In this document: one piece after another, positions 14,131 to 47,460 of the stretch | Layout of the letters: every line of letters begins with the position of its first letter | Numbering within the stretch: position 1 is the stretch's first letter | Notes under the pieces: model-generated | The model's input: the letters and a program-made list of their open reading frames with translations, nothing else | Database searches by the model: none | Told to the model about the DNA's origin: nothing | Assembly (NCBI GenBank): GCA_950097015.1 | Contig: CATNEN010000007.1 | Location: 8,618,001 to 8,682,000, forward strand | Direction: 5' to 3' | From: Macrostomum hystrix | Taxonomy: Eukaryota; Animalia; Platyhelminthes | DNA: 64,000 nt | Program-made: the position numbers and the translations under genes

Positions 14131-16269
14131 CTCAGAGTTCGCCCCATGAACCGTCCAGGCGGCTGTCCGACACTCTGCAAGAATAAATGATTATTTTGCT
14201 TTGCTGCTTGTTCAACTGCGGAGTAGGAAAACAAGTCCTATCTCTACAAATACCCCAGTCCCATCTCTACAAAAAATCCCAGTCCCATTTTCACAAATAC
14301 CCCAGTCCCATTTCCACAAATACCCCAGTCCCATCTCCACAAATACCCCAGTCCCATCTCCACAAATACACCAGTCCCATCTCCACAAATACCCCAGTCC
14401 CATCTCCACAAATACCCCAGTCCCATTTCCACAAATACCCCAGTCCCATTTCCACAAATACCCCAGTCCCATCTCCACAAATACCCCAGTCCCATTTCCA
14501 CAAATACCCCAGTCCCATTTCCACAAATACACCAGTCCCATTTCCACAAATACCCCAGTCCCATTTCCACAAATACTATCACCAGAAGCTGTGATGCAGT
14601 ATTCAAGCACATCCTCACTTTCGCCTAGACAGGAACATCTTCCTGAAGGTCTCCTTCACTGTTGTCCTCGGCGACGACTTTCGACGCCTGCCGCTCCCCG
14701 CCGACGTCGTGGACTCTATGGTGGAAGACGTCGAAGCCGACGAGGCGGCGGCAGCCGAGGACGCAGCGTGGTGCACGGACGCCCTCCGGCGGACACCGCC
14801 GACAGAGATGACGTCACCAGCGGAGCGGCTGCGATCGCTGGGTCGGAGTCGGCGGGCAGTCTCTGGACTGATCTGCAAACCAGATGGCACTTTTACATGG
14901 TACAGGTAAGGTACAGGTACAAGTACATTTAAAGTTACAGGTAGGTACAGGCAAATGTACAGTTAGGCACAGGTACAGGTACGTTCAGGCACAGGTACAG
15001 GTAGGTGCAGGCACAGGCACAGGCACAGGTACAGCTAAGTAGGTGATACCTGCGGATCACTTGCGAAGAAGCCGCTTACCTGGAAGACGACCACTCTGCT
15101 TCTGCCGGCGCTGGCTTCCTCGGGTGGCACCGAGCGGCACCGCTGCTGCTGCTGTTGCTGCAGGGAGCTTGCCTGATCCTCTGGCCGCCGTTGCGCCCGC
15201 TTGAGATGGCGCGGCGAGTCCCACGGATGCGCTAGCGCCTCAGGTTGCGTTGAACGGCGGCGCTGCCGTGAGGACTGGCCGGCGATGAGGAAGTGCTGCT
15301 GCTGCTGTTGCTGCCGATCGCCTGAAGGCGCGACCTCCTCCTCCGGAACTGTCGCCGCCGAGTCGCCAGTCCAGGCGGTGGCCTCGGCCAGCGCGCCCTG
15401 GATGCTGCAATTGAGCTGGTCCAGGAGGCCCCGCAGCCGGTCGGTGGCGCTGGTCAGATGGCCGAGGTCCGGGTGGCGCGGGTCCGTGCGGTCGGCCAGC
15501 TGGCGCAGCAAAAGAAGATAGCGTGGCAGCCGCTGCACTGGCGTCAGGAGAAAGGCCGTGAGTTCGAGTCCTTCGCAGTCCGGATGCCGCTGCAGGGTCT
15601 GGAGGAGGTCGCGGAACTTTCTAGACCGTCGGCGGAGTCGGCGAACGCAGCGCATGGCGGCGCCGAACTGCGAGACGTAGCTGCGGTACAGCTGCAGCAG
15701 CTGCCGCTCCCGGCTCTGCAAGAAGCTCTGCACGGTCTTCGCCAGGCTGCACTGCGGCTGCCGTTGACTCGGCGCACTGCAGTCGTCCGAGTCCTCCAGG
15801 CTGGCGAGGAACTCCGCGTGAATGTCGTAGAGTCGGGGCAGCGTGTTCGGGAAGATCAGGCTGCGTTTTGGGGTAAATTTGTTGGGAAGAATGTAGTTTG
15901 AAATCTTAAGGAGAAACAATGCTCTAGATTGCTCATATCCGCTCATATCCGAAATTTGGAAATGGGATGTATGGTCACGTGACCCTCACCAGAGATCCCG
16001 GGTGCTGACGAAAGCGGCCGATCGGAGCGAGCCGCCAATCAGATCGATGAGAGTCCACAGGCAGGAGCAGTACTTGCGCTCCGTCTCCACGATCTCCTCA
16101 CACACTTTGCGGCGCTGGTCTGCAGGAGATGAGCACAGAATTGAGCACAACCTTCTTACAATTTCTTAGATTTCCTAATAAACTGATTAAACTCAACAAC
16201 CAAGGCCAACTTGAAGACGAAACTCACTTTCAATTATGAGTCTCTCATGTGGTGCCACACGCCTAGCCA

Positions 16270-29454: not shown

Positions 29455-31539
29455 AGTAGCATGGGTTAGCAGAACCCTGCCGAACAGTGGAGAGATAGGA
29501 GCGCCCGCGGGTGGTGGGGCTAGCTCGAGGTTGACCGAGTGTGGGGCGTTGGCCGCACATGGGGTGGTGGGGGCCGGGGGAAGGATTGTAGAATCCTGCC
29601 GAACAGAGAGATAGGAGCGCCCGGGTGGCGGGGCTCGCAGAGCTGGATTGGGGTTGGGTTGGTTCATATTTTTACACTGGGACTGGCTAACACCGCAGTG
29701 ATAGGAGGAGAGGGCGGCTATCAAATTGCTGGTGTTGGGTGCTTTGGGGCGGTGTGGTGGAACTCTGCCGATCTCAGCAAAAAATGGAGCAGGCTGGAAG
29801 TGGGAATTGTGAATAACTTAAATCAGCGGTCATAATATTTAGGGGTGTGGCTGGGGTGGAGGTTTCGAAGGGCTTCAAAGAGGAGGAGCGCAGAGAGTTT
29901 TTTAAATCCATAGGGTAGAATTAATATGTGAATCAACTCTTAAGTTCCCATTAAAGTTTTGTTCGTTATGATTCCATTATTTTATGGCTGACACTAACCC
30001 CCATATTTTAATTTAGTGTACATGTACACTAGTGCAAGTGGGTCGGTTTGGGGTGGCGCGCAGTGAGGATTGGCTGGGGCAGCGAGTTGGGTTGGTTGTT
30101 ATGTCATGATCATGTACATGTAGCCTAGAGGGGATGGGGTTGTGTGTTGCGCCCAGCAGGAGCAACAGCAGCAGGCGCTTAACTTAACTTAACTTAAGCG
30201 ATTGGCGCTGGCGAGACGGAGCTGGTAGCTCACTCGGCGCCTCATGCCCCTACAACTACAACAGCAGCAGGCCAGCGCCGCCCCGGGGAGCAGCGCTGCC
30301 CAGCAGCAGCTGCCCGTTGAACAATTGGACGCTGAGTTGGACTCCCTTATTCGAGACATTGGTTTGGATGCTGCTGCAATGGTTGGCCTGCCCGCAGCTT
30401 CTGTGCCCGCCTCTATCCAGATTCCGGATCGAAGCGTCATTCAACTTGTGCTGCCACCGGTAACAGGTGCTGGATATATTGTAAAATCTGGTACTTTTGA
30501 GTTTGTCATCACGCCAATATAAGTCTTTTTTATGTTGTGCTAAAACTATTTCATAAAAGTGTAGTTTCAAAGTGAAATTAGAGGGATATTAAGAACACTT
30601 TTGGCATTTGCTTGAAAGTTAAAGCGTAGGTACAAAGCGAGCTGAGTAATCTAGGGTTACGAGCCGTATTGCAAAGTTCTGAAAAATTTAGGGGGGGGAC
30701 ACGCAGTATTCCAGCACATTGCTTTGAATACTCGTATTCGTACTATTAGAATTGTTTTAGGAATTTTGTCAAGTTTGATGCTGCTGCTGATGGAATTGCA
30801 CATTTTTATGTTCTTTTAAATAAAATGTTGTTGTGCGGAGCAATGCTTCCATTAGTTACTGGATAAATGCGTTTATAGTTTTTTTATTTTTCTAAAAAAA
30901 TTAGGTGAAAAGATATCAAATTTTGTGCGATAAGTAAATTCTTTTAAATTTATTGAAACTGAGAATTACATTTTTAAATTATAGAGGTAAAAAATTTCAG
31001 CTGGAGTCCTCAATTCCAAGTGAGGATCCCCAAGGTATGGATAGCTCAGCTAACTTAAGCGATCGCGAGTCATCAGACGAGAACTGGAGCAAGTCTGATG
31101 AAGCTGCCGGATGGAGTGAGTCGGGTGATTCAATGGAAAACTGGTCCGAGTCTGGCTCTGAAGTCCTACCCTCGGAAAGTGTCGAATCCGCATCAGAGTC
31201 AGCAAGTGCGGCTGGCAGTCAATTGGCACCATCTGGTGGAGGCAGCAGTGTCTCCAGCGTCAATAGCAACCGCAACAGCAAGCAACATTGCTGAACAACC
31301 TGGCGAGTTGAAGCTATTTGGGTTCAGGAAATATTTTATGCTAGTCGGTCATTATTATATTTATTTTTTCGAACATTTACAATCGACTTAATTGTTTCCA
31401 AATTAAAGCAAACCTCAAACAAAAATGGAATAAAATCAGTGATTTTTAATCAATATTCATTATATTCTCTCTCCAGCGTGCATATGTATATTTATATTGC
31501 ATCAAAAAACTAATTCGATTTATTTAATTACTTCCACAG

Positions 31540-34500
31540 GTACTCCTCAAGTTCAGGTCATCAGAGCTCACAATGGCATCCTTCAAGTTTTTCGTATGGC
31601 TCCCAGGCAGGAAGGACTCGAAGCACTCGCTTTCGTCAGATCATGCAAGGATCTAGTGAGGAAAACACTTTCTGATCAGCTAACTGACTCTAACCGGATA
31701 GTCCGCGCTCAGTTGCGTTTCAACGTGCAGATGAAGAGAATGAGAGCTGGTGAGGTGATTGCAGAAGAAGATAAGTGGATCAATAGCTGTCTTGAAGAAA
31801 TCAATTCGATTGAAGAGTTCGACGATTGGTGGGCTCGCCAAGTAGGCGCGTGTGAGCGAATGATCGACTGCCTAAACACCAATGGTAGTGGCTGGATTCT
31901 CGACGTTGCCAATTCTTTGGATGTGTGCATTGCTCAGCGAGACCGGATCCGATTTTACATTGGTCGAAGCCAAAACTTTGCCTTGCCCGAAGCGCTCAAG
32001 CGAAAGAAAGCAGTCATAAACCAAGTGAGTGAGACAACCGCTTTCCTTATGCCTGCCTCGCAGTTCTTCATCATGGTTCAGAGACGTTGCGCAAGTCCCC
32101 ATTTGTTGTCAACGTATGCACCTTGGCTAGATAAGCTCAATCTAGATGGGGTTTCCGAGCCGGTAACTCTAAACAATCTGGAGAATCAGAATCCGAACTT
32201 TTGTTTCACGGTACTAACGTGGCTAAGAGGGCGTGCGGAAGTATTGAGGCAACCGAAGGCCAAAGTTGTGGCAGGAAGGCGTGTCATTCCATTGATCTAT
32301 TCGTGCAGCAGCAACAATGCTGAAGAGGAGGATGATTGTCGGATGAGGAAGAAGTTGTCGCACCTCAAGCGCACTGGTGTGGTATTGTCAGTTTGAATCG
32401 ACTACTCAACAGCAAAGATGGTCTCCACCAGCGAAAGTGGTGCGAGCGCTGCCTGTCAGGATTTCGCTCTGAGGAGCGATTGGAAAAGCATAGACAGGAC
32501 TGCTATCAAAGTGTCGAGTGCACTGTTCGAGAGGTGATGCCCAGTGTCGAGAAGAACACACTCCAATTCAACAACTGGCAAAACACTATATCGCCTCCGT
32601 TTGTTGCCTATGCCGATTTTGAGGCTTTCAATTCTCCGTGCTCTGAAGCAGCAGTCTCAACAAGCTTGATTGATACCGCAATCGAAAACCCAGGTGCTTC
32701 ATCGCCAAAAAGTGGAATGGTTCACCTTACAGATTATCATCCCGCAGCCGCTGGCTACATCCTTCTCCAAAGGGGGGACACAATCGGTCCTCGATTGCGA
32801 GGCACGGACGCTTGTCTGAAGCTTTTTTGTGAGACTGATTCTGAGAGTTGCGTCGAAAAATTTCTGCGGTCGCTTGAAAAAGATGCTAGAGAAATCTATC
32901 TGTGGAATAAGACGTACAGCCACCAACCTAAGGCTTTAAGCGCTGAGAGTGAAAAGACATTCACCGATTCTACTGCTTGCTATCGCTGCGGAATGGCCTT
33001 TTCAGACTCTTCTCTGAAACACTGGGATCATGATCGTGAGAGATACAATTCAGACTACTGACAACAGTAGAAAAGCAAAGACTTGGCTGCAAAACTCTCA
33101 CATAACACTAAGAAAGTATCGCCATAAAAATGGCAAGCTTAAAAGAGACTTCTGTGCACACTAAGAGTGGTGGGAGAGGACGGCGTGTGGCTATGGCTGA
33201 CTGACGAAGGCAAACAAGCCAGAAACCGGTCTCGGTCTGCCAGCGCGAGGTTCGTTCCCCACTTTTAGTGTGCTACAATGATCATCTGACGGGCGAGTTC
33301 AAAGGGGCATCTGTGCTGATTGTAACATGAGAGCTCAACTCAAGCGTCGCTTTTTGCCTATTTTCTTTCACAACCTCGCTGGTTATGATGTACACCTAAT
33401 TTTTTCCACTGCTCTGAAGCGAAAGATAAATAGGAAACTATCTGTTGTTCCTCAGTCAATCGAACGCTACTTGTCTTTAAAAGCGGAATTTTTCGTCGAT
33501 ATTTTTGAAATTGATGAAAAGCAGAAGCCGATATCGTTCGTCCTGCAATTTCTTGATTCCCTACAGTTTCTAAACTGTAGCCTGGACAGCCTGATGCGGA
33601 ACATGGAGGCTAGTGAGTCTAGGAGGCTAGTGAGTCTAGGAGGCTAGGAGGCTAGGAGGCTAGTGAGTGTCACGTGACAATGCAAATGAGGAACATGTTT
33701 CCCAATGTCTCTGAGTCTTTTGTTACGATTTTCTGCAAGGCAGCGCCGACTTATTAGTCACGACGTTACCAGATCAGAAGGATTTTTTCAACACGCTGAC
33801 AAAGTCCGAGTGCAGTGACGCTGACTACAATCATGCTCAGCGAGCTTGGCACGAATTCGATTGCCAGAACCTTGCCGATTACATGAGGAGCTACTTAGAG
33901 CGAGACATTCGCCGATTGGCAGATGTTTTCGAGTCTTTTCGAAAATTGAGCCTTCAGGATGACGGGTTAGATCCCATCCATTATGTCACTACACCTGGAC
34001 TGTCATTCGATTCCGCTCTAAAGACAACTGGAACAAAATTGGTGCTCCTAACCGACGCGGACATGTACCGAATGTTCGAGCAAGGGATTCGAGGAGGCAT
34101 CACATTTGTCAACATTCATCAGGTCGATGCAAATTCCGGCAGTGATGATGCTGAAGATGAGAGCTATGCTCAGCAACATCAAGCTCCGAAGAGTGCCTTA
34201 ATTCCTCTTGACGTCAACACTTTGTATGGTGTTGCCCTCTAAATGTCGCTACCCGCAAGAGAATTTAGATGGGTTGAAAGTGAAATCATTGAAGATTGGA
34301 CTGCCGAGACATTCCTGTCTTTGAGCGAAGAATCAAGAACCGCCTATCTAGTCGAGCTGGATCTAATCTATCCTGATGCTATTCACCACAAGACAAAGGA
34401 GCTACCACTTGCACCAGAAAAGGGGCAAGTCGATTTTAACGAATTTCCGGATTTCATGAAGCAGCTCTGGAACCAACTTCAAGCGGAGGATGCTCCGCTT
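31540..34500 (+). pseudogene. Protein-primed family B DNA polymerase (Polinton pPolB), frameshifted and truncated
   Basis: Motifs GSGW, LPEALKRKKAVIN, CERC..H zinc finger, VAYADFE (ExoI), C..C..DHDHLTG (endonuclease VII-like), FHNLAGYD (ExoII), FLDS, YLERD..LADVFE (ExoIII), GIRGG, LDVNTLYG (motif A) and LPLAPE. Several frameshifts and stops. Motifs B and C are missing. Confidence 0.9.
33035..33277 (-). mobile_element. Solo LTR inserted in pPolB
   Basis: 243-bp insert flanked by ATGAT at 33030-33034 and 33278-33282. On the minus strand it starts TGTAG and ends CACG (one change from CACA). Removal restores D-H-D-H-L-T-G. Confidence 0.7.
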
Positions 34501-35218: not shown

Positions 35219-36243
35219 TCATCCACCCAGCCAGTTGAATCGTAGCCGGCCCACCGGATCTTTTCCCTTGCGCTTCTCTGTCTTGAGTATTTTCTCTATA
35301 ACATACAACCGCTGTGAGTCGGGAACAACCTGCAACTCGTGCTCATGAAATAGACCTCTGATATCTTCACCCTTCATGTCCCGAATCTTGTACATGTAGG
35401 GAAAATGTTTCGGAGCTCTGGACACCACGGTGTAGCTCGTACACCTCTTCACTCCAGTTGGCTTTATATCCTTTCCTGAACAACCAGGGCGCATTGGAAA
35501 TTCGCACTTTCCAAAAACTTTTGCTTCTTTAACTTCTCTATAGTCTCGATCGCTTTTCCATCATAAAGGTTCATCCAAACCTCAATCTCTTTACACACTT
35601 TTAGAGGGGACATTCGAATGCTTCTGAGGTAGGTATTGTTGTAGGACTTCACTAGCTTGGGTAGTGCATCAACCCAATGCAAAGTGCTTCTGTGTGTGAA
35701 GTATCGCCACATCTTATTCTTTAAGGTCCGGTTCCATCGCTCAATGACAGCCGCCTTCTGTCCGCTGTTGGTAGGAAAAGCCAAAATACCCCTGTCCATG
35801 CAGCACTTGCGAAAGGATGAGTTCAGGAACTCCTTTCCCTGGTCAGTGCGAACTGTGCGGGGCTGCCGCTTTGAGCTTCGCAATGTGCTCTCAAAGGCTG
35901 ACTTGACTTCCACAGCCGATTTGTTTTTCAATGCTCGGGCCCATGCGCATTTGGATAGGACATCAATACACGTTAGAATATATTTGTAGTCTTTGTTATA
36001 TTTTGAGAAAGGGATCATCTCCATCAGATCAAGCTCCCATTGATCATCAATGCTTCGAACTATTATTGGTGCCCGTGGATAACTTCTTCTAGCTGCCTTA
36101 TGCAACGTGTAGATTACCTGATTGCTAAGCCACTTTCTCACATCCTTCTCTTTCACGCGCATTCCCTGCCTACGAAGTTCATTAAGAAATTTGTTGCAAC
36201 CAGAGAAACTGGCTGGATTTTCAGGAAAAAAAATACTTTCCAT
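35219..36243 (-). pseudogene. Polinton retroviral-like integrase with C-terminal chromo-like domain, frameshifted
   Basis: PENPASFSG, LHK.ARR.YPR, QWELDL (D), IDVLSK, RTDQGKEF (D), IERWNRTLK (E). Downstream frame reads YKIRDMKGEDIRGLFHEHELQ..YVIEKIL. Confidence 0.9.
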
Positions 36244-36538
36244 TCTCCCCTGCTCTCACTAGAAAAAGCAAACAGCATTTTCTTAAGTTTAACAGAAAAT
36301 CATGCTGCGATATCAATAGTTATTGCTGCATTCGTTTTTTGTGTATTTTTCTTTTTTTTCTACGCCAGTAATCAAAGTGTCCAATCGGCGCTCGCTGATT
36401 GGGTGTAAACACCCACCCCAGGCACCCACCCCAGGCACCCACCCCTCCGCTTTTAGCTGGGTTGTATTTCAGCCGGCACCCCCGTGCTGCCCAGCCTTGT
36501 CTCTTCGCGCTGCGTGGTGTGAAATTTTTTCTACGGCA

Positions 36539-39500
36539 ATGGCTGAGCTTCCAATTGACCGGCTTACGGCTCGCCAGTTAAGAGACCGCCTGATTCAACT
36601 TGGCCTGCCTAGCAGCGGTCGCAAGCGTGAACTGCAAGTCAGACTGGAACAATCCAGTTTAGTCAGCCGAACCACACGCCGCGTGCAGCAAAGGTCAAAC
36701 GCTTCGGCCCAAGTCGAGGACGACGGCAGCACCTGCAGCGAAGAGGACGGCGAGGCGAACCCGGACCAGGCGAGTGATCTGGGAGGCGGCGACGACCTGG
36801 ACCAGAGGATCGCCAGACAAGAGAAGCTGCTCCGCCTGAGAACGCTTCAGCGCCAAACAGCGGAGATTGAAGCCGAGCTTGGAAAGGACGGCCAGCGCAT
36901 ACAGAGTGGTAAGTCGACTAGCCCGATGCTGCTTAACCAAACCCTCAGTGCCCACGAGCCGGAGCAGCATCTGCCAGTGCCAGACTGGGAACTCCCCGGC
37001 AGCTACACTAAGCCAGCTGCCACCTCGAGGCCTCTGCTGGTGAGAGACTTCATCGATCGTGACTTCGAGGAGCCTGCGCCCCAATTAGCGAAGACTAGAG
37101 CCCGAACTGAGAACATCACGGCCGGTCAGTGGGTTGCAGGCAGCGGCCGCATCCTGCTGAGACTGCTTGACGACGGTGCCCTAGTCACAATGAGAAACGG
37201 CACCATGGATTTGAGTGAGCTGAAAGCCTATGTGCGGTACTGCGTACAGTTCGGCGAGTTCATGCATCAGGGCTTCAGCCAGGCCGCCCTTAACGACTAC
37301 GACGAAGACTTCAGGATCCTGCAGCACCAGACCAGCGGCAGCTGGGAGCGGGAGTCGTTGCAGCTGCTGTCCAAGCACATTCTGGCACCTAAACCCAATC
37401 CTGCTGGCAGTTCGACCTATTCGCGGCCTGGCTTCAAGTTCAGCAAAATGAGAAACCAGACAAGCGGCTTGGTCGGCCCAACCGACGCTGAAGGTCGGGA
37501 GCTGTGCGTCAAATTCAACCGAAACAGCTGCCACAGACGCGACTGCAAGTTCAGACACGCGTGCTCTGCCTGCTACGCGGCGCACCCGCGCCAGCTCTGC
37601 ACGTCAAAAAAACTAGATTGCGGCCGGCCGGGGGACTTGATCGACGGCCCAGCTGCACCGGCCGATTCTGACAATGTCGATCACCCGCTCCCCCCTGGCC
37701 GGCCTCAAGCTAAGCCCATCGAGTCCGTTGCCTTCTCTTCTGACCTTATCACCGCCGCCTGGGATGCCGAGCTGCTCGGCGATCCCGATCGTGACTTCCT
37801 GCTGAACGGTGTCCGCAACGGCTTCCGCCTCACCTGCCCCAGCGCCCCTGACAATCAGCCTAATAGCACTTTCTCTCAGAACTACTTCTCCGCTGACAGT
37901 AATCGGCTACTGGTCGAGCAGCAGGTGCGGGAAGAAGTGGCCAACGGCCGTTACGTGAAAGTTAGCAACAAGCCGGACGTCATCAGCGCCCTTGGTGCCA
38001 TCCCGAAAGGAAACAACAAGATCCGGCTGATCCACGACTGCTCGCAACCTCCGGACCTCTCGCTGAACAGCCGTTTCTCCTCTGACTACCAGATCAAGTT
38101 TGAGACCGTCAGCCAGTTCACTGCCAAGCTGCAGCCAGGTTGGTTCATGGCGAAGGTCGACTTGGCCAATGCTTACCGCAGTGTCGGAATCAGTCCCCAC
38201 GACTTCCGCTACACTGGTCTACAGTGGAAGTTCAGCGATCAACCGAGCCCGACGTACCTGTGCGACACGCGCCTGCCATTCGGCGCGGCAGCTTCAGTGG
38301 AAGTCTTCCACCGCCTCAGCCAGTCCATCAAGCGCATGATGCAGCGACGCGGCTTCAGCAATATCGGGAGTTACCTCGATGACTTTGCCGTGGCGGCAGA
38401 AACTGAGATCGCCTGCCAGCAAGCTCTGGACACTCTACTTCATCTGCTGCGGCGTCTAGGCTTCTCCATCAACTGGAGCAAAGTAGCTCTGCCGTGCACT
38501 AGGCTGGTGTACCTGGGCGTCATGATTGACACCAACAGCGGCCTGCTAGAGCTCCCAAAGGACAAGCTCGAGGTCACGAAAGCGCAGCTGCAATCCGCAC
38601 TCTCGCACAAGCGCATCACCAAGCGCCAGCTCCAATCTCTCTGTGGCCGCATCTACTGGGTTTGCCAGGTCGTCCGTATCGGGAGGTGTTTCCTGAGGCC
38701 GCTCCTGCTGGAACTCAATAAGTTAAAGCAGCACTGCCACAAACTGCGCATGCACAACGATCTCCGCGAGACCATCCTCTGGTGGGTGGCCTGCCTGGCC
38801 AAGACCCCCAGCTGCCGCATCTGGAGGACCGCCGGGCCAGCCTGGGCAATCGAGTCGGACGCATCCAATTGGGGAGGCTGCGGCATCATCCGCGGCCCAG
38901 GCGTCACTAACTGGCTCATCATCGACTGGCAACGCGATAGTCCGGAGCTCGAAACTCTGCACATCAATTTTAAGGAGAGCCTCGCGCCCGTGTTCACGGC
39001 TCTGCACTTTCAACAAAAGCTGCAACCAGGAAGCAACCTGGTGATCTACTCGGACAGCACGGCCGCTGTCGGCGCCATCAACAAGGGCTCCTCGCCGAAC
39101 CCGATTGTCAACACAGCCCTGCAGCAGCTCGCGCTTCTCGCCGCTCACCGCGATCTCGTTATCCAAGCCTTCCACGTGCCTGGGACGTTCCAGATCTTTG
39201 CGGACAGCGGCAGTCGCGCAGATGACACCAGCGAGCTGGCAAATTTTCTGCTCCGGCTCTACGGCACAGTGGACATTGAAACTGACAACCTTCATGAGCA
39301 CACCCTTTCGTCCGCCGCCCGCCAATTCCTTTCTTTGCAGATCGCTCGCCTACGGTCCCGGGTTCGCACCTCAGCCGCCGCTACCACGAGCTCTGCAGCC
39401 TGGCCTTCGCAGGCACGACAGCGCGCTCCTACCGCTGCCAGATTGCCTCCTGGCAACGCTTCTGTAAGCGAACGCGCATTGACAGCACCAGACCGTCAGC

Positions 39501-40090
39501 ACAGCAGGTCGCGCACTACGTCATCGTGCTGGCCGACCGCCTCACATCGCATGCCAGCATTGGCGCATACCTTAACGCCGCCGACCTGTACTGCAAGCTG
39601 CAGACTGGCCGCGGCCTCCCAAGCGACCCTCGCATCGACCTGCTCCTCCGCGGCGTGCGACGCAAGCTGGCCAGGCCACCCGCGCGCAAGGCTCCAATCA
39701 AGCCAAACCACCTGCTCAAAATGCGGGGAGTACTGCAGCTGCATATTCCGGAGGACGCAGCCTTCTGGGCGGCTGTCCTGGTCGGATTCTGGGGCCTGCT
39801 GCGCCGCGCAAACCTGTGCTGCCCGACCCCAATGCCGCCACCGGGAGAGGCCATCATCGTTGAAGACCTACGGCTGGGCTCGGACCTGGCAATCCTGCAT
39901 GTCCGTAAGTCCAAGACCAATCAGTTCCGTGAGCGAGTGCACCGCGTGGTCCTGCCACGCCTTCGACGCGAGGCGCAGCACCCGCTCTGTCCGGTGGCAG
40001 CGCTGCGACACCACCTGCACGCCAACCAGCCCGTCCCTGCTTCAGCCCATCTCTTCGCCTTCCGCCATTGCGGTGGTCTCGTGCCAATGA
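36539..40090 (+). CDS. Ngaro Gag-Pol: SAP domain, Cys/His zinc finger, reverse transcriptase, RNase H
   Basis: SAP LTARQLRDRLIQLGLPSSGRKRELQVRL. Zinc finger CVKFNRNSC....CKFRHACSAC...H....C. RT motifs KVDLANAY, RLPFG, YLDD. RNase H motifs ESDAS, HINFKE, YSDS, ADSGSR. Confidence 0.9.
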   Translation: MAELPIDRLTARQLRDRLIQLGLPSSGRKRELQVRLEQSSLVSRTTRRVQQRSNASAQVEDDGSTCSEEDGEANPDQASDLGGGDDLDQRIARQEKLLRLRTLQRQTAEIEAELGKDGQRIQSGKSTSPMLLNQTLSAHEPEQHLPVPDWELPGSYTKPAATSRPLLVRDFIDRDFEEPAPQLAKTRARTENITAGQWVAGSGRILLRLLDDGALVTMRNGTMDLSELKAYVRYCVQFGEFMHQGFSQAALNDYDEDFRILQHQTSGSWERESLQLLSKHILAPKPNPAGSSTYSRPGFKFSKMRNQTSGLVGPTDAEGRELCVKFNRNSCHRRDCKFRHACSACYAAHPRQLCTSKKLDCGRPGDLIDGPAAPADSDNVDHPLPPGRPQAKPIESVAFSSDLITAAWDAELLGDPDRDFLLNGVRNGFRLTCPSAPDNQPNSTFSQNYFSADSNRLLVEQQVREEVANGRYVKVSNKPDVISALGAIPKGNNKIRLIHDCSQPPDLSLNSRFSSDYQIKFETVSQFTAKLQPGWFMAKVDLANAYRSVGISPHDFRYTGLQWKFSDQPSPTYLCDTRLPFGAAASVEVFHRLSQSIKRMMQRRGFSNIGSYLDDFAVAAETEIACQQALDTLLHLLRRLGFSINWSKVALPCTRLVYLGVMIDTNSGLLELPKDKLEVTKAQLQSALSHKRITKRQLQSLCGRIYWVCQVVRIGRCFLRPLLLELNKLKQHCHKLRMHNDLRETILWWVACLAKTPSCRIWRTAGPAWAIESDASNWGGCGIIRGPGVTNWLIIDWQRDSPELETLHINFKESLAPVFTALHFQQKLQPGSNLVIYSDSTAAVGAINKGSSPNPIVNTALQQLALLAAHRDLVIQAFHVPGTFQIFADSGSRADDTSELANFLLRLYGTVDIETDNLHEHTLSSAARQFLSLQIARLRSRVRTSAAATTSSAAWPSQARQRAPTAARLPPGNASVSERALTAPDRQHSRSRTTSSCWPTASHRMPALAHTLTPPTCTASCRLAAASQATLASTCSSAACDASWPGHPRARLQSSQTTCSKCGEYCSCIFRRTQPSGRLSWSDSGACCAAQTCAARPQCRHRERPSSLKTYGWARTWQSCMSVSPRPISSVSECTAWSCHAFDARRSTRSVRWQRCDTTCTPTSPSLLQPISSPSAIAVVSCQ

Positions 40091-40335
40091 CCGCCACCCG
40101 GTTCTGCCGCCTGTTTCGCCGCGCAGTCAACCTCGCCGGCCTGGGAGGTCTATCGCTCTCACCGCACAGCCTCCGTCGCGGTGGTGCCTCCCTAGCTTTT
40201 CGGGAAGGCATCCCGCTGCCCGTCGTCAAGGCGCTGGGAGACTGGCGGAGCTCGGCGGTGGAGGCGTACCTTGGGTTGGAGTCGGGCCTCGACCTGCAAC
40301 TGGCTGCTGCTCAAAAACTATCAGCGTGCGTTTGA
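39341..40335 (+). CDS. Tyrosine recombinase of the Ngaro element (overlaps pol in another frame)
   Basis: Catalytic residues LLRRAN (R), KSKTNQ (K), HSLRRGG (HxxR), LGDW and EAY (Y). Frame is open from 39298 and includes the N-terminal TARSY..W.RFC core-binding segment. Confidence 0.9.
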
Positions 40336-41109
40336 CCCTTGATCTGTCGCTCAAACATTCTTTGTGACCTCTTTCTTTTGTACTCGCTGTGGACCAAGTG
40401 CCGGCGGCTTCTGTCTTCTGTATTTTTTTTGCTTCACGTTTAGTTGTTGTGCTGCGCTCGCTGGTCTTGCTTGTAACTTCTTTACGCTTTCAACCATTTT
40501 GTGTTTTATGTTTTAGCTCTGTTTTAAGTGCGTACCGGCGTCACCCTATTTTGCATTTTATGTTGCGTGCCTCCCCCCCCCCTTCCTCTTCCTTTTTTTG
40601 GGTTTGGGCCATAGACGGTGCCCTTCCCTCGTTCGCTCTCTGCTGTGTCGCATCTGCTGTCTCTGTCTGCCTTCGTGCCTGGGAGTGTGGTGTTTAGTGT
40701 CCAATCGGCGCTCGCTGATTGGGTGTAAACACCCACCCCAGGCACCCACCCCAGGCACCCACCCCTCCGCTTTTAGCTGGGTTGTATTTCAGCCGGCACC
40801 CCCGTGCTGCCCAGCCTTGTCTCTTCGCGCTGCGTGGTGTGAAATTTTTTTCTTTTTCCTTGCTTCCTTTTTTCTTTCTTGCTTTTGCCTTTTTGTGTGC
40901 ATTTTGAATACTTCCTTTGAAACAATTTATCTGCAAATATATCGTATGTGGGCCATAGACGGTGCCCTTCCCTCGTTCGCTCTCTGCTGTGTCGCATCTG
41001 CTGTCTCTGTCTGCCTTCGTGCCTGGGAGTGTGGTGTTTAGATGATTAAAAGCAATTTGGATAGCAATGAATGCTAACTAAGTCCATAGAAGGTTAAATA
41101 AGCAGTAAT

Positions 41110-41603: not shown

Positions 41604-44600
41604 TCAGGGAGGTCCGTGTTCGGTCCTTCCTGCAGCTTGTTCCTCGCTGGGGAAGAAAGAGGCTCGTCTGGTAGCCCTTAGGAACCGGACGAGCCGCGGG
41701 ATGTTCTCGGATCTGCAAACATCGTCCATGGATGGGTTTGGTCCGAGGTGATTAAGCCTCTCTCTGGTGAAGAAAGGGCAGTGGCAGACGAAGTGCAGGG
41801 CATCCTCGTCCTCAAGGTTGCAGAAAGGGCACAGCTCACTCCGGAGGTCTCCACGGAGGAAACAGTGTCTGGCGTAGCAGCCATGGCCCGTGAGGGTCAT
41901 GGTGAGGGCCCGGATGTCCTTCCGGGTCTGGTTCAGAAGGACCTTCCGGAGCCGAGCGGATGGCACTGGAACTGCCGCTTTGGATTGGCGGCAGTTAGTG
42001 GTGCTTCTCCACCGGGTAAGATGGAGGTTGGCGGTCCAATCATTAATCTGACGATAAATGACGGTGCTCGGAATCGGAGCCGGGGGGGAGGGGCCCGGCG
42101 CAGAGCTGGCTCCTCCCTGCTTGGCCAGGTGGTCAGCAAGCTCGTTACCAGGGAAACCAGCGTGCCCTGGTATCCACTGAAGTCTGACGGTATTCTTACC
42201 GGCCAGGTTATTGAGCTGCCGGACACAGTCGGAGACTGTCCGGGAGGTTGTGGTGGTGTGACAGAGGGCTTGCAGAGCAGCCTGACTGTCCGAGTGAAAG
42301 ATGATAGTCCTGCCTGAGATGTTTTTCTCATTCAACTCCGCAGCGCAGGAGCTGATGGCCAGGACCTCGTTCTGGAAAACGCTCGAGGATTTTCCAGTGT
42401 GTTGGGCGTGTGTGGCGACAACACGTCCGTTGATAAGGATACAGACCCCGAAGCCAGCGGAGCCATCCTTCATGGATCCGTCCGTGTAGCAGTGGACCTC
42501 CTGGGTGTTCCAGTGGTCGCTAACTTGGTCCCTGGTGGGGATGAGAGCCTTAAAGCGCTGAAGGAGGTTGAGCGAGCACGGTTCACCGTCCGTAAGGACA
42601 TTGATTCCGTTGCTCGCACCCAAGTCTCTCAGGCAAAGGTCCGTGTGCGGCAGGAGCTTTCGCTTCGCTGCCGCTCGTTGGGGGACGAAGCGCACACCGG
42701 CATCAAGGAGACGCCGGGCGGTTTTTGCCGCCTCCCCGCGGATAAAGATATCGAGCGGGAGGATGTTCAAGAAGGCGTTGAGGCCATCGAAGGGGGCGGA
42801 TGGCGGGGCGCTCATGATCGTCCGACATGCGCGACCTTGCACTCTCCGAAGAGTCTCATGGCAGGTCTTAAGCTGCAGGGCACTAGCCCAGATCAGTCCG
42901 GCGTACGAGACAGCCGGCCTGACCATAGCAGTGTAGATCCACCATAGGCGTTTGGGGGTGAGACCCCACGTGTTGCCCACCGCCCTGCGCAGCTGCGCCA
43001 GGATCGCAAAGGCCTTTTTGGCTTTGGCATGGACATGAGGAGTCCAGCTGAGCCTGTGATCGAGCGTTATGCCCAGGCATTTAGTTTGCTTCTGGAAGGT
43101 GATGTCCTTTCCATACAGCTGCAGGGGGCGAATATGCCATTTGTTTTTGCTGGTGAACATGATCGCCGCTGTCTTAGACTCGGAGAGCTTCAGACCGCAG
43201 CGAGTTGCCCATCTTTCGGCGTTGTTGATAAAGTTTTGCAGAAGGTCTCGGAGGGCCTCTGGTACCGGGCCAGATGCCACTGCCGTAACATCATCCGCAT
43301 AGCCGACCTTTAGGATGGGGTCTGGCTGAGAGTCTCGTAAGAGCTCGTCGATAACCATGTTCCAGAGAACTGGTGAGAGGACGCCGCCTTGTGGGCAACC
43401 TTTGCAGACAGTGACCGTCCGCTGGTGTCCAAGAAGGTGTGCCGTAGCAGTGCGGTGGCGGACCATGTACATGATCCACCTCCTAAGATGCGAATGCGTG
43501 TGCCGCATACGTAGGGCCCTGTCAAACGCCTCGAAGAGAACGTTGTCGAAGGCCCCGTCAATATCCAGGAAGATGCTCAGGGCAAAGCCGTTCCCGAGGA
43601 CGGCCTTTTCCAGAGCGTCCACCAGAGCGTGGAGAGCGCTTTCGGTGGAACGTCCCGACCGAAAGGCGTGTTGATTGCCGCTTAGTGGCATATTTTTCAG
43701 CTCCACAGAGAGGAGGCGCCAGAGCACCAATCTCTCCATCAGTTTGACCATGGTGGAGGTTAGGCTAATTGGCCGAAACGATTTAATGGAATGGTAGTCC
43801 GGGCGGCCTGGCTTGGGGATAAAAACCACCCTCGCCTCGGTCCATGCCTTCGGAACATACCCAAGCACAATGCAAGCCTCAAGGAGCTTGCAAAGATTTG
43901 TGAGGAAGCCATGGCATTTTACCGCCTCGCGGATGAAGGCTGGTATAATGCCGTCCGGCCCCGGGGATTTGAAGGGTTTGAAAGACTGGGCTGCCTTGGT
44001 AACCCGGTCTTCAGTAATGATGGACGTCGCAAGGATATGACCTCCCTCGGTGTGATCCGGGGGGTCTGTCCCTGCTGGCACGCTGGGGAAAAAGGCTGTG
44101 AGCATAGTGTCGAGCGTTTCCCCAGGGTTCTCGGTGGGTCGGCCATCGGCCTTCCTCACCGTCGAAAGCTTGGACATTTTGTCCAGCGTGAGGGCTTTGA
44201 CAATTCTGGAGGTGGGGCGAGTGCCCTCAAGCTCCTCACAGTATTGCCGCCACTTGCTGTTTTTGGCGTTTCTGACTTCCTTCTTGAAGCTATGGATGGC
44301 TTCGAGATACGCAGCCTGATCAGCCGGGTTTTTTGTCTTCGTGGCCCTGCGGTGCAGCCGCTTCGCCGTTCGACGGAGCTCGCCGAGCTGCGGATTCCAC
44401 CATGGGGCCGAAGTTTTGCCTCTGTAAGCTTTGAGGGGGCAGGAGGCCTCGAAGGCGGTGGTCAGCGAGTTGGTGAGAAACTCAGCTAGCTCATCCGCTT
44501 CATCGCAGGTGTTGGCGGGGGGGCTGAGGTTCCGTTGGGTTCCTTCGAGGTTATACCTGAAGGCTTCCCAATCGGTATTCCTAGCGTTCCTTTTCCAAGT

Positions 44601-45305
44601 GATCTGGTTAGTGCAGCGTGCACCCGCCAGTTGGAAAGAGATGTATTTGTGATCGGAGAGGGAGGTCTCCGGCAGAACCTGCCACTCCCTAAGGCTCTGG
44701 TAGAGCCCAGGTGTGGCTAGAGTGGCGTCGATGACCTCAGACCACCGTCCATTGTCAAATGTCGGGGTGCTCCCTGTGTTGCAGAACTCCAGAGGCGTGG
44801 TTAGGATGTAGGCAAGGAGGTCCTCGCCTCTCGAGTTAATGTCAGAGCTCCCCCAGTGGGTGTGGTGGGCGTTTATATCGCCAGCCACCATGAGCTCATA
44901 GTTTTTGGTAGCGCAGGTTTCAGTCAGAGAGATCAGCTCCTCAGGGACTGCCGGCCTGTCGCCCGGTAAATAAACCGATGCGATTAAGACGGTTTTGCCT
45001 GGGAGGATGCTCTCCGTCTGGATGACACAGGTGTCCCGATCAGAAAGGTCGGGTCTGTACCAGGCGTTGAGGGAGTCTCTCACGAGGATGCACGCCCTGG
45101 GATTTTGGTTCTCCCGGTGACGGCTGTTGTAGAAGCAGTGATACCCATTGGGTACATTTTGAGGCTTACCTTTATGAGTCCACGGCTCCTGGACGAGGAT
45201 GAGACCCGGCGTGTTGAGCTCGACATAGCGCATCAGGTTGACGGATGCAGCTATGCAGTGTTGCAGGTTGACCTGCAGGCAGGTAGTCCCAGTCTGGCCG
45301 ATCAT
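41604..45305 (-). CDS. LINE ORF2: AP endonuclease, reverse transcriptase, RNase H, C-terminal zinc knuckle
   Basis: QVNLQH, LVQEP, GDINAHH, SDH (APE). PGPDG, FRPISL, FLDIDGAFD, PQGGVLSP, YADD (RT). YTDGS, NEV, SDSQ, WIPGH..GNELAD (RNase H). CPFC..EDALHFVCHC. Confidence 0.95.
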   Translation of the reverse strand: MIGQTGTTCLQVNLQHCIAASVNLMRYVELNTPGLILVQEPWTHKGKPQNVPNGYHCFYNSRHRENQNPRACILVRDSLNAWYRPDLSDRDTCVIQTESILPGKTVLIASVYLPGDRPAVPEELISLTETCATKNYELMVAGDINAHHTHWGSSDINSRGEDLLAYILTTPLEFCNTGSTPTFDNGRWSEVIDATLATPGLYQSLREWQVLPETSLSDHKYISFQLAGARCTNQITWKRNARNTDWEAFRYNLEGTQRNLSPPANTCDEADELAEFLTNSLTTAFEASCPLKAYRGKTSAPWWNPQLGELRRTAKRLHRRATKTKNPADQAAYLEAIHSFKKEVRNAKNSKWRQYCEELEGTRPTSRIVKALTLDKMSKLSTVRKADGRPTENPGETLDTMLTAFFPSVPAGTDPPDHTEGGHILATSIITEDRVTKAAQSFKPFKSPGPDGIIPAFIREAVKCHGFLTNLCKLLEACIVLGYVPKAWTEARVVFIPKPGRPDYHSIKSFRPISLTSTMVKLMERLVLWRLLSVELKNMPLSGNQHAFRSGRSTESALHALVDALEKAVLGNGFALSIFLDIDGAFDNVLFEAFDRALRMRHTHSHLRRWIMYMVRHRTATAHLLGHQRTVTVCKGCPQGGVLSPVLWNMVIDELLRDSQPDPILKVGYADDVTAVASGPVPEALRDLLQNFINNAERWATRCGLKLSESKTAAIMFTSKNKWHIRPLQLYGKDITFQKQTKCLGITLDHRLSWTPHVHAKAKKAFAILAQLRRAVGNTWGLTPKRLWWIYTAMVRPAVSYAGLIWASALQLKTCHETLRRVQGRACRTIMSAPPSAPFDGLNAFLNILPLDIFIRGEAAKTARRLLDAGVRFVPQRAAAKRKLLPHTDLCLRDLGASNGINVLTDGEPCSLNLLQRFKALIPTRDQVSDHWNTQEVHCYTDGSMKDGSAGFGVCILINGRVVATHAQHTGKSSSVFQNEVLAISSCAAELNEKNISGRTIIFHSDSQAALQALCHTTTTSRTVSDCVRQLNNLAGKNTVRLQWIPGHAGFPGNELADHLAKQGGASSAPGPSPPAPIPSTVIYRQINDWTANLHLTRWRSTTNCRQSKAAVPVPSARLRKVLLNQTRKDIRALTMTLTGHGCYARHCFLRGDLRSELCPFCNLEDEDALHFVCHCPFFTRERLNHLGPNPSMDDVCRSENIPRLVRFLRATRRASFFPSEEQAAGRTEHGPP

Positions 45306-46882
45306 GGTCCAGCGGGAGACTCCTTGAGCAGCTCGTCCTCCTCAGACGGGGTCGGGCTGCAGACCTCCATGAGTAGCGGCGCGCCCGCATCCGCTGTGGA
45401 GGGAACGGCGGGAATCGCTGCGGAGAGCTGCTGCTCTGACCGCTGCGTGTCCCGGCCGCTCCACCCAACAACGGTGCAGTCGCTGCCATCACTCGACGCC
45501 TCGCCCTCGGGGGTCGGGTCCGTGTGGATGGCAGCCTCCTTCCGGTGAGGGAGATCCTCAGACCAGTCGGTGGCCACCGCTCCGTGGGTCCCGGCACTCT
45601 GCGGCTGGCTAGGGGGGGAGGAGGTTTGCGCTTTTGCAGCGCGGGAGCGCTCCAGGTGCTCTTTGAGCGCCCGGGCTTCGCTGAGCGCCCGCAAGACCAG
45701 GCCCGATTTGCGGTTGTTGCGGGCTGGTCTACGATCTCGGGGGCCGGATTCGGCGACGCGGATATTTTTGCCCGGGCGGGGGTCCACGGACGTCGCATGC
45801 CGCTTAGCTGGCGGAGCTTTCGCCCCAGGGCCAGGAGCGGCCCGCTTGTTTTCCGGTCCCTCCCCGGCCTTCCTCTCCTGACAATCCAGGATGGTCAGCG
45901 GGTAGAGTCCCGGTTTGATCACGCTCTTGTGAGGGATCCTTTTGGACCAGGCTTCGGAGAAGCCGTAGATCGCCGTGAAACCCTCCGCTCCTTTGCGGAC
46001 GGTCTCGTGGCAGATCAGCCCGGAGGCTGGGAGGTCCGGGTTCATCTTCAGCAGCAGCTGCCGAAGTTGGTCCCCGGACCGGATTGAGCAGGCGTCGGGG
46101 ACCCAGACGCGATGGCGTCGGGTCCGTGGACGCTCAGACTCGGTGGTGCACCTCAGTCTTCCGACATCGGTGCTCCACTTGAAATCTTTAATCCGATCGC
46201 GCAGTAGACGGCTATCCCCGGCCGATTTGCACCAGAGGAGGACAGCCCCCTCCTGCGCTTCAGACCTGACAACGCTGACTGGTGTCCCTGCCAGTGCCAG
46301 GTCCGTGAGGCCCTCGTCGATGGTTTTGAGCATGCTCTTGAGCTGCTCGTCTGAGAGGTCCTGTTCCTCGCCGACAACAATGATGGCCGGCTGGGCAGGC
46401 TCCCGCTTGGCTTTGGAGGCGTAAGTCTCCTTGGCCTTGCTGGCGTTGGACGTGCCAGCCTTGTGAGCGGTGGTGGCCGTGATGGCGCTGGGGGCGGCGG
46501 CTCCAGATGGCCCTTCTGCGCCTTCCACGCTCTTCCCGTCGGCGTCGGTGCCGGCCTCGGAGATGGTGATGGCCGGCGCGGCGGTGAGGGCGGCGGATCC
46601 AGGTGGCCCGGCCGCATTTTTCGCACCCGCCTCCTGTGCAGGTGTCGGGCGCCCACCAGTCGCAGCCGCCGCAGCATTGCGGCGGCGTTCGTTGCGCTTC
46701 TGGTTGCGCCTAGCACGCGCTTCCTCCGAGCGTTTGCGGCTCGGGTTGCGCTTATTTTGGTCGACGATTCCGGTGGCGGGATTCTCAGACCCACCGGCTA
46801 CACCGAGGACGTGGGACCTGCCAGTGGCAGCGTCCGGAGCGGCCGAGTTTTCGGTTTCGATAGAAGAAATGGGCGAGGCCAT
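45302..46882 (-). CDS. LINE ORF1 (gag-like nucleic-acid chaperone)
   Basis: Long ORF directly upstream of ORF2 with ATGA stop/start overlap. Basic N-terminus, low-complexity linker and central globular region. First ATG (MASPISS) at about 46882. Confidence 0.85.
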   Translation of the reverse strand: MASPISSIETENSAAPDAATGRSHVLGVAGGSENPATGIVDQNKRNPSRKRSEEARARRNQKRNERRRNAAAAATGGRPTPAQEAGAKNAAGPPGSAALTAAPAITISEAGTDADGKSVEGAEGPSGAAAPSAITATTAHKAGTSNASKAKETYASKAKREPAQPAIIVVGEEQDLSDEQLKSMLKTIDEGLTDLALAGTPVSVVRSEAQEGAVLLWCKSAGDSRLLRDRIKDFKWSTDVGRLRCTTESERPRTRRHRVWVPDACSIRSGDQLRQLLLKMNPDLPASGLICHETVRKGAEGFTAIYGFSEAWSKRIPHKSVIKPGLYPLTILDCQERKAGEGPENKRAAPGPGAKAPPAKRHATSVDPRPGKNIRVAESGPRDRRPARNNRKSGLVLRALSEARALKEHLERSRAAKAQTSSPPSQPQSAGTHGAVATDWSEDLPHRKEAAIHTDPTPEGEASSDGSDCTVVGWSGRDTQRSEQQLSAAIPAVPSTADAGAPLLMEVCSPTPSEEDELLKESPAGP

Positions 46883-47094
46883 GGCTGAAAAGCGGGTGGG
46901 GGGCTGCTCGTAACACGAGTGAGAAAAGCCCGACTGGCCGACACCCCAAGCCAGCCGGGAGCAACAGAGAGAGTGAAACACCGTTAGCGGCTGGAATACT
47001 CCCCAGCCAAAGCGCGGACCAAGGTCCGGCAAACGCCCAACAGCACGGATGCACTGGGGACATTAGAGGGCACCAGATGGCCGGAAACCGGGGC

Positions 47095-47460
47095 CTGCGG
47101 AGCTGGCCGCATACCCTGTTAAGGTCGAAGGGTGACACCTTTCCCTCAGAGCCGTAGCCAGAGGTACCTGATCACGCACAGGTGCACGAAACGCTGCGGA
47201 CTGGCCGCATACCCTGTTAAGGTCGAAGGGTGACACCTTTCCCTCAGAGCCGTAGCCAGAGGTACCTGATCACGCACAGGTGCACGAACGCTGCGGACTG
47301 GCCGCATACCCTGTTAAGGTCGAAGGGTGACACCTTTCCCTCAGAGCCGTAGCCAGAGGTACCTGATCACGCACAGGTGCACGAACGCTGCGGACTGGCC
47401 GCATACCCTGTTAAGGTCAGAGGGTGACACCTTTCCCTCCAGCCGGGGCTAGAGGTACCC
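47095..47460 (-). repeat. About 97-bp tandem monomers (3.7 copies) in the LINE 5' UTR
   Basis: CTGGCCGCATACCCTGTTAAGG recurs at 47103, 47201, 47298 and 47395. Confidence 0.9.

Follow-up and report, generated by a model that had tools for sequence, protein, structure and literature searches.

Our analysis indicates that the tyrosine recombinase (YR) of a Ngaro-like retrotransposon of the flatworm Macrostomum hystrix is probably expressed by splicing, from a donor within gag (36908/36909) to an acceptor inside the YR frame (39340/39341), which would yield a protein of 454 amino acids (aa) with the N-terminal part of Gag fused to the recombinase (Gag-N/YR). The element spans positions 36376-41041 of the window, a stretch of 64,000 nucleotides (nt) of assembly GCA_950097015.1 (contig CATNEN010000007.1, positions 8,618,001 to 8,682,000, forward strand). 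By its repeats and frame order it is an intact, ordinary Ngaro-like retrotransposon (order DIRS), with a gag-like frame, a frame for reverse transcriptase and a putative RNase H (RT/RH) and the YR frame in succession on the forward strand, Gag being assigned by position. A preliminary description of this DNA had proposed the fusion, the RT and RNase H sequences being excised as an intron. All the positions that it gave (those of the TGA, donor, acceptor, intron and exons), as well as phase 1 and the length of 454 aa, were correct on recomputation, and its core proposal, built on a predicted junction, is well supported by the strength of the sites, their phase, the domain boundaries and the traces found in relatives. 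The expression of a start-less, overlapping YR frame, a question unaddressed in the passages of the literature that we examined, thus receives a precise and testable answer. If this answer is true, the real recombinase is a Gag fusion, which matters for the expression of the enzyme and for the annotation of these elements.

The recombinase frame and the predicted splice junction

The YR frame (39298-40335) opens after a TGA at 39295-39297 and contains ATG codons at 39721 (aa 142), 39832 and 40087, so that the absence of any ATG before 39721, as previously described, is upheld. We compared copies of the element using contigs of four (X1, X2, X5 and X6) of 14 listed public runs, with copy variants drawn from 40 of 210 variant rows. 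Those contigs of X1, X5 and X6 that cover the ATG at 39721 have CTG in its place, and only X2 keeps the A. A start at M142 would cut five core-binding helices of the AlphaFold2 (AF2) model, and the next one, M179, lies beyond the catalytic Arg169, as does, in consequence, the first ATG of the CTG copies. Because of these three facts, we consider that the YR frame has no usable start. The encoded protein matches Phage_integrase in Pfam, has its core-binding helices at aa 24-124 of the frame, and shows the residues R169, K206, H290, R293, W316 and Y324, invariant in all 26 aligned rows. Its AF2 model (predicted local distance difference test, pLDDT, 88) finds Cre/Tre as top Foldseek matches (E-value 1.4e-10), and the Cre structures (PDB 5u91, 1ma7 and 3crx) share the two-domain fold over the whole of predicted exon 2, with a template modelling score of about 0.7 at 17-19% identity; Cre is a stand-alone phage enzyme, unlike the fusion predicted here. 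In the YR tree the window protein sits on a long branch, with at most 32% identity to the 39 other rows, and is separated from the six bacterial integrases. Over the YR frame, pol continues for 249 codons without a stop (39341-40090) and has no Pfam match there, an openness that may be a mere effect of the 61% GC content.

The predicted donor (GTG|GTAAGT at 36908/36909, with its GTAAGT at 36909-36914) and the predicted acceptor, where a polypyrimidine tract and CAG (39326-39340) form the sequence TTCCTTTCTTTGCAG ending at 39340, are both in phase 1. Using our own generic metazoan weight matrix over 36539-40335, the donor ranks first of 148 GT dinucleotides (score 9.8) and the acceptor first of 250 AG dinucleotides (12.7, against 8.1 for the next), with no AG in the 40 nt ahead of it. 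Exon 1 (36539-36908, 370 nt) would comprise 123 codons and one further nt of the Gag N-terminus, and exon 2 (39341-40335, 995 nt) the recombinase, including its core-binding helices and catalytic residues as seen by AF2, Foldseek and alignment. The putative intron of 2432 nt (36909-39340) contains the core of Gag together with the RT and RNase H-like regions, all of which would be lost on splicing. Joined, the two exons give an open frame of 454 aa with a single terminal stop, whereas unspliced Gag reads G-K at the donor. The gag ATG is the first of the element and has a purine at -3 and a G at +4. The junction also falls between structural units, since in the AF2 models a Gag helix ends at aa 122 and the first YR helix lies nine residues past the acceptor.

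Among 1000 dinucleotide shuffles, none had an equally good acceptor in the zone and none had both sites matched in phase; 45 had an equally good donor in gag. This last count leaves some room for the idea that the gag donor is incidental and that the acceptor receives a trans-spliced leader. Leader trans-splicing occurs in several invertebrate phyla, and some leaders end in AUG. Such a leader would, however, join in phase 0 and open the 249-aa pol tail instead of YR, and the gene models of relatives described below use gag donors, which makes this explanation highly improbable.

As for conservation among copies, on which the preliminary description had placed weight, the donor is unaltered in the bridging contigs from X5 and X6, all differences of which (11 of 11 and 7 of 7, respectively) fall elsewhere, and the acceptor is identical in the X1 contig covering 38913-39386; for relatives, the phase of donor and acceptor is traced from protein. 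Nine bases ahead of the donor, at 36900, all four runs carry a variant. Contigs of the four runs continue unbroken across the donor and across the acceptor. None of them contains the 36908-39341 joint, an absence that counts neither way since the runs are not recorded as RNA and contigs lose rare forms.

Traces of the predicted junction in distant relatives

A phase-1 acceptor that is read through in the YR frame should leave a recognizable trace in the protein: pyrimidine-coded residues, S/P/T/A or L/I/V, and a G-initial codon. We scored this trace as a sum over codons, with a threshold of 5 bits, in the zone 19-28 aa before a conserved Thr. This anchor Thr is present in 136 of 150 representative relatives, 120 of which are at most 370 aa long, and 48 have at least 25 residues upstream. 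The phase-1 trace reaches 5 bits in 20 of these 48 proteins, as compared with three for phase 0, three for phase 2, 125 of 1890 windows in the body of the proteins and none of 10 bacterial integrases. Because an initial inspection had guided the choice of the 19-28 aa zone, we repeated the test on held-out, unseen proteins: 18 of 42 carry the trace (p 8e-7), whereas the corresponding counts are 111 of 1627 for body windows and 260 of 2100 for composition shuffles of the same N-termini, and the other phases (3 of 42) show nothing. This protein-level trace suggests that the fusion layout extends well beyond the window family. The proteins that bear it are distributed over several regions of the YR tree, to either side of the long branch of the window protein.

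Gene models provide a second line of comparison. Sixteen of the 150 representatives exceed 370 aa, and seven of these, all from RefSeq, combine a Gag-like N-terminus with a full YR and lack RT (XP_078682739.1, XP_078682969.1, XP_078660129.1, XP_019639177.1, XP_035659582.1, XP_070571119.1 and XP_077986280.1). They come from lancelets and hemichordates (Branchiostoma, Glandiceps and Ptychodera) and share the RT-skipping join of Gag N-terminus and YR predicted here; they are annotated as uncharacterised or xerD-like and differ by lacking SAP, a nucleic-acid-binding domain present in the window Gag. In the five that were measured the junction lies 22-24 aa before the conserved Thr, the corresponding distance in the window being 26. 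Two fusion models can be compared with models of full elements: P0198 equals P0210 at aa 1-174 and 1037-1366, and P0217 equals P0207 at aa 1-212 and 1099-1436. At the junction both full-element models read G-K, exactly as unspliced Gag does in the window, and the fusions read A, a replacement that would fit a G|GTAAG donor in phase 1. The P0198 model (503 aa) recurs at four loci, and the phase also fits when P0275, a read-through, is compared with P0143 and P0200 with P0280, as well as within the internal repeat of P0159. P0196 and P0281 have an ambiguous junction, and neither was counted, although P0281 is labelled as a fusion in the tree. By eye, three of the fusion N-termini are Cys/His knuckle-like and three are basic. 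A heptad-like helix occurs in six of the seven, with no more than two of 100 shuffles scoring as well.

Several observations weigh against the spliced Gag-N/YR fusion, or against its extension to relatives. The traces are deduced from protein with our own matrix and not from the DNA of the relatives, for which a metagenome scan gave one locus only, an ABC-transporter-like false match, and a viral scan none. More than half of the relatives remain under 5 bits (28 of 48, and 24 of 42 in the held-out set), and 72 of the 120 short relatives are too short upstream, the called start of many lying 21-23 aa ahead of the anchor; some lineages may, judging from these proteins, have their own YR ATG. A search for Gag relatives of the window family found none (0 matches among 7998 candidates), so that the donor lacks a deep comparison. 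The fusion models form a separate clade, about 25-32% identical to the window YR, whose branch lies outside the starred clade containing all of them. Pfam detects SAP in none of the seven, P0200 lacks the heptad-like helix, and the heptad score of the window Gag itself, a crude measure, is equalled in 21 of 100 shuffles and is not significant. Finally, eight of the 16 long models, five of them from RefSeq, join RT/RNase H pieces to YR. Since such joins also occur in RefSeq and annotators attach the acceptor to any upstream frame, gene models are not proof at the RNA level.

The latter models bear on an explanation in which the acceptor is real and is joined to another donor, located within pol or the RNase H region, or in which a frameshift from pol produces a Pol-YR polyprotein. 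The pol frame is open across the acceptor to 40090, and an extract of PMC3783388 describes fungal Ngaro YR as possibly in frame with RT-RH. Nevertheless, the pol frame contains no X XXY YYZ heptamer at 39298-39420, the top eight donors include, apart from 36909, phase-1 sites that score only 6.1 and 5.9 against 9.8, and selection for a T-rich YAG in a single phase across relatives would not be expected from a frameshift; we thus regard this explanation as unlikely. The called starts bear on a different one, the translation of YR without any Gag part, which could rely on an internal promoter, leaky scanning, reinitiation or a near-cognate start such as the ACG at 39352, upstream of the first YR helix. 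In many relatives the called start is exactly at the YR N-terminus, but some of these calls may fall on a GTG or TTG codon within the pyrimidine tract. In the window, M142 would delete the core-binding domain and is CTG in three of the four runs, and a Gag-less YR leaves the top-ranked, phase-matched donor and acceptor unexplained. We consider it very unlikely. The proteins P0139, P0230, P0247, P0249, P0260, P0006 and P0007 all have a called start at the YR N-terminus, and may represent an own-ATG lineage or GTG/TTG calls within the acceptor tract.

The element, its class and its Gag and Pol products

Split direct repeats, arranged as A1 ... B1 A2 B2, delimit the element. A1 (36376-36530, 155 nt), the putative promoter, is 100% identical to A2 (40696-40850), and B1 (40605-40697, 93 nt), which has an AG in common with A2, is 100% identical to B2 (40949-41041). 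B2 forms the right end of the element, as seen in an empty-site contig of run X1, where 36351 is joined to 41041. In other public contigs the element ends continue into other flanking DNA, corresponding to other insertions, and these flanks together with the empty site indicate a family with multiple copies and recent mobility. The A and B repeats overlap by AG, which is also found at both ends of the element here (36376-36377, 40696-40697 and 41040-41041), and loose ends at other insertions in public contigs have a C after position 41040; given this C, the crossover core that the repeats share may consist of one base only. Each A repeat contains 2.8 copies of a 13-nt C-rich unit (36410-36445 and 40730-40765). 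Internally deleted or recombinant copies are represented by joints in X1, X5 and X6 around 38357-38490, 38942-40242 and 40062-40320; one X6 contig departs from the element at 38357, and X5 has a cluster of differences at 38380-38437.

Neither inverted terminal repeats nor an internal complementary region was found, the only inverted pair being an internal one of 25 nt with 80% identity, which led to the rejection of a DIRS-like assignment. VIPER-like elements carry YR before RT/RH; this class was rejected for an element with YR as its last frame. An extract of PMC6681497 likewise lists Gag-like, YR and RT/RH for VIPER. The PAT-like class, defined by direct repeats plus a methylase domain in the text available from PMC7192593, was rejected too, as the direct repeats are present and the methylase match is absent: Pfam found no methyltransferase in the 1183-aa frame (E-values up to 0.1) or in its 249-aa tail. 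By contrast, the repeat order and the missing methylase match fit the Ngaro-like definition, which includes the split direct repeats in this order (PMC8547959, section 11) and the absence of a methyltransferase (PMC13465315), both as given in extracts of these papers; we assign the element to this class on that basis.

The Gag N-terminus carries the SAP domain at aa 7-38 (36557-36652; Pfam PF02037, E-value 3.3e-07, above the cut-off), followed by a long amphipathic helix at aa 85-122 (36791-36904), which ends at the donor and is predicted by single-sequence AF2 with a pLDDT of about 86 over aa 91-110 within a Gag model that is poor overall (pLDDT 43). Gag Atlas matches were leads below 0.9 only. 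The RT core (38003-38527) matches Pfam RVT_1 with an E-value of 3e-14. The RNase H-like region (approximately 38850-39220) has no Pfam match; BLASTP alignment to the RT/RH of relatives extends through it to aa 882-898, and its motifs were recognized by eye.

The gag/pol boundary (37606-37616) consists of an A-run, a C and a TAG. The run at 37606-37612 has seven As in this copy, and gag and pol are for this reason one frame of 1256 codons from stop to stop. Runs X1, X2, X5 and X6 all contain a form one A shorter, in which gag ends at the TAG after an A AAA AAC heptamer. Since these six-A copies stop gag just past this heptamer, the sequence most likely points to the production of Gag-Pol by -1 frameshifting, and the seven-A form may be an allele or an assembly slip. 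A stem-loop past the slippery site (37622-37700, -36.5 kcal/mol) is a weak candidate for a frameshift stimulator (z -2.1, with 4 of 200 shuffles as good). The preliminary description had derived Gag, Gag-Pol and the fusion from one promoter; this fits the data, with the amendment that Gag-Pol most likely needs a -1 frameshift hidden in this copy.

The same A-run could be invoked to argue that the window copy, which differs there from the others, is defective or mis-assembled, that the splice sites are due to chance or vestigial, and that the YR of this family goes unexpressed and is supplied by another family. The fully identical repeats, the six intact catalytic residues, the insertions with other flanks and the empty site, as well as the absence of both sites together from all 1000 shuffles, make this scarcely credible.

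Proposed expression scheme, known systems and genomic surroundings

Under the spliced-fusion scheme, one transcript initiated in A1 would have three fates. Unspliced RNA would serve as Gag message and as template, -1 frameshifting at A AAA AAC would give Gag-Pol, and spliced RNA would give the Gag-N/YR fusion. More speculatively, the N-terminal helix shared with Gag could allow the recombinase to co-assemble with Gag and the cDNA, while a variable nucleic-acid-binding module (SAP here, Cys/His or basic elsewhere) would ride on YR and bias its target choice. The preliminary description had suggested that SAP could help to guide target choice; with SAP missing from all seven fusion models, such a role would not extend to the whole family. 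Comparison with the fusion models makes such co-assembly via the helix, with a variable nucleic-acid-binding tip, the likeliest role shared by these Gag parts.

Retroviral env and the pol of foamy viruses are likewise expressed, from a single promoter, through a spliced subgenomic RNA for the 3' gene, the unspliced RNA being both genome and Gag message. Here, the spliced gene would instead be that of the integrating enzyme, carrying 123 Gag residues, and the element has neither a protease nor a DDE integrase. With the Ngaro-like elements described in PMC13465315, PMC8547959, PMC6681497 and bioRxiv 10.1101/2021.08.05.455354, it shares the organization A1-[gag, RT/RH, YR]-B1-A2-B2, overlapping frames, the absence of a methyltransferase match and a Cre-like YR, and it differs in that no SGNH hydrolase frame was seen between YR and B1. 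The extracts available from these sources describe three overlapping or frameshifted frames and make no mention of splicing from gag into YR. We found no description of such splicing in the literature searched, which covers neither the founding Ngaro papers nor the 2015 review, the Repbase reports and the supplements, so that a prior description is possible; nor did the literature searched contain any paper reporting SAP at the N-terminus of a Ngaro Gag.

A broader and more tentative idea, doubtful at present, is that this organization is an ancient rule in animal Ngaro elements: YR would be encoded by a second exon, spliced to an exchangeable Gag N-terminus whose module (SAP, Cys/His knuckle or basic patch, with a coiled helix) would serve the Cre-like enzyme as a targeting and packaging device, which would explain the control of target preference by ORF1 (the first open reading frame), including preference for Polinton- or virophage-like DNA of the kind that appears to surround this copy. 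In Cafeteria, according to section 11 of PMC8547959 as available in extract, Ngaro copies without ORF1 lie in host DNA and full copies favour virophage DNA, ORF1 thus appearing to set target specificity. A Gag-N/YR fusion, if true, would provide a mechanism for this ORF1 dependence of target choice.

In the window, the insertion point of the Ngaro copy lies some 120 nt upstream of a frame for an rve integrase on the reverse strand (35464-36255, Pfam E-value 7.9e-13), and stop- or frame-broken pieces resembling B-family polymerase occur at about 31500-34500 on the forward strand (Pfam DNA_pol_B_2, E-value 0.013, below the cut-off). Together, these pieces look like a decayed Polinton/Maverick-like element; one insertion near them is no proof of target preference. 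About 560 nt from the right end of the Ngaro element lies a non-LTR (long terminal repeat) retrotransposon on the reverse strand (41604-47062), with both frames open: an ORF1 of 586 aa, weakly matching DUF4780, and an ORF2 of 1245 aa that comprises an endonuclease, RT and RNase H. An array of 97-nt tandem repeats lies at 47095-47459. Further away, a host gene is represented on the reverse strand by an exon with a RhoGEF domain (15035-15985, Pfam E-value 2.7e-27), set among abundant tandem repeats.

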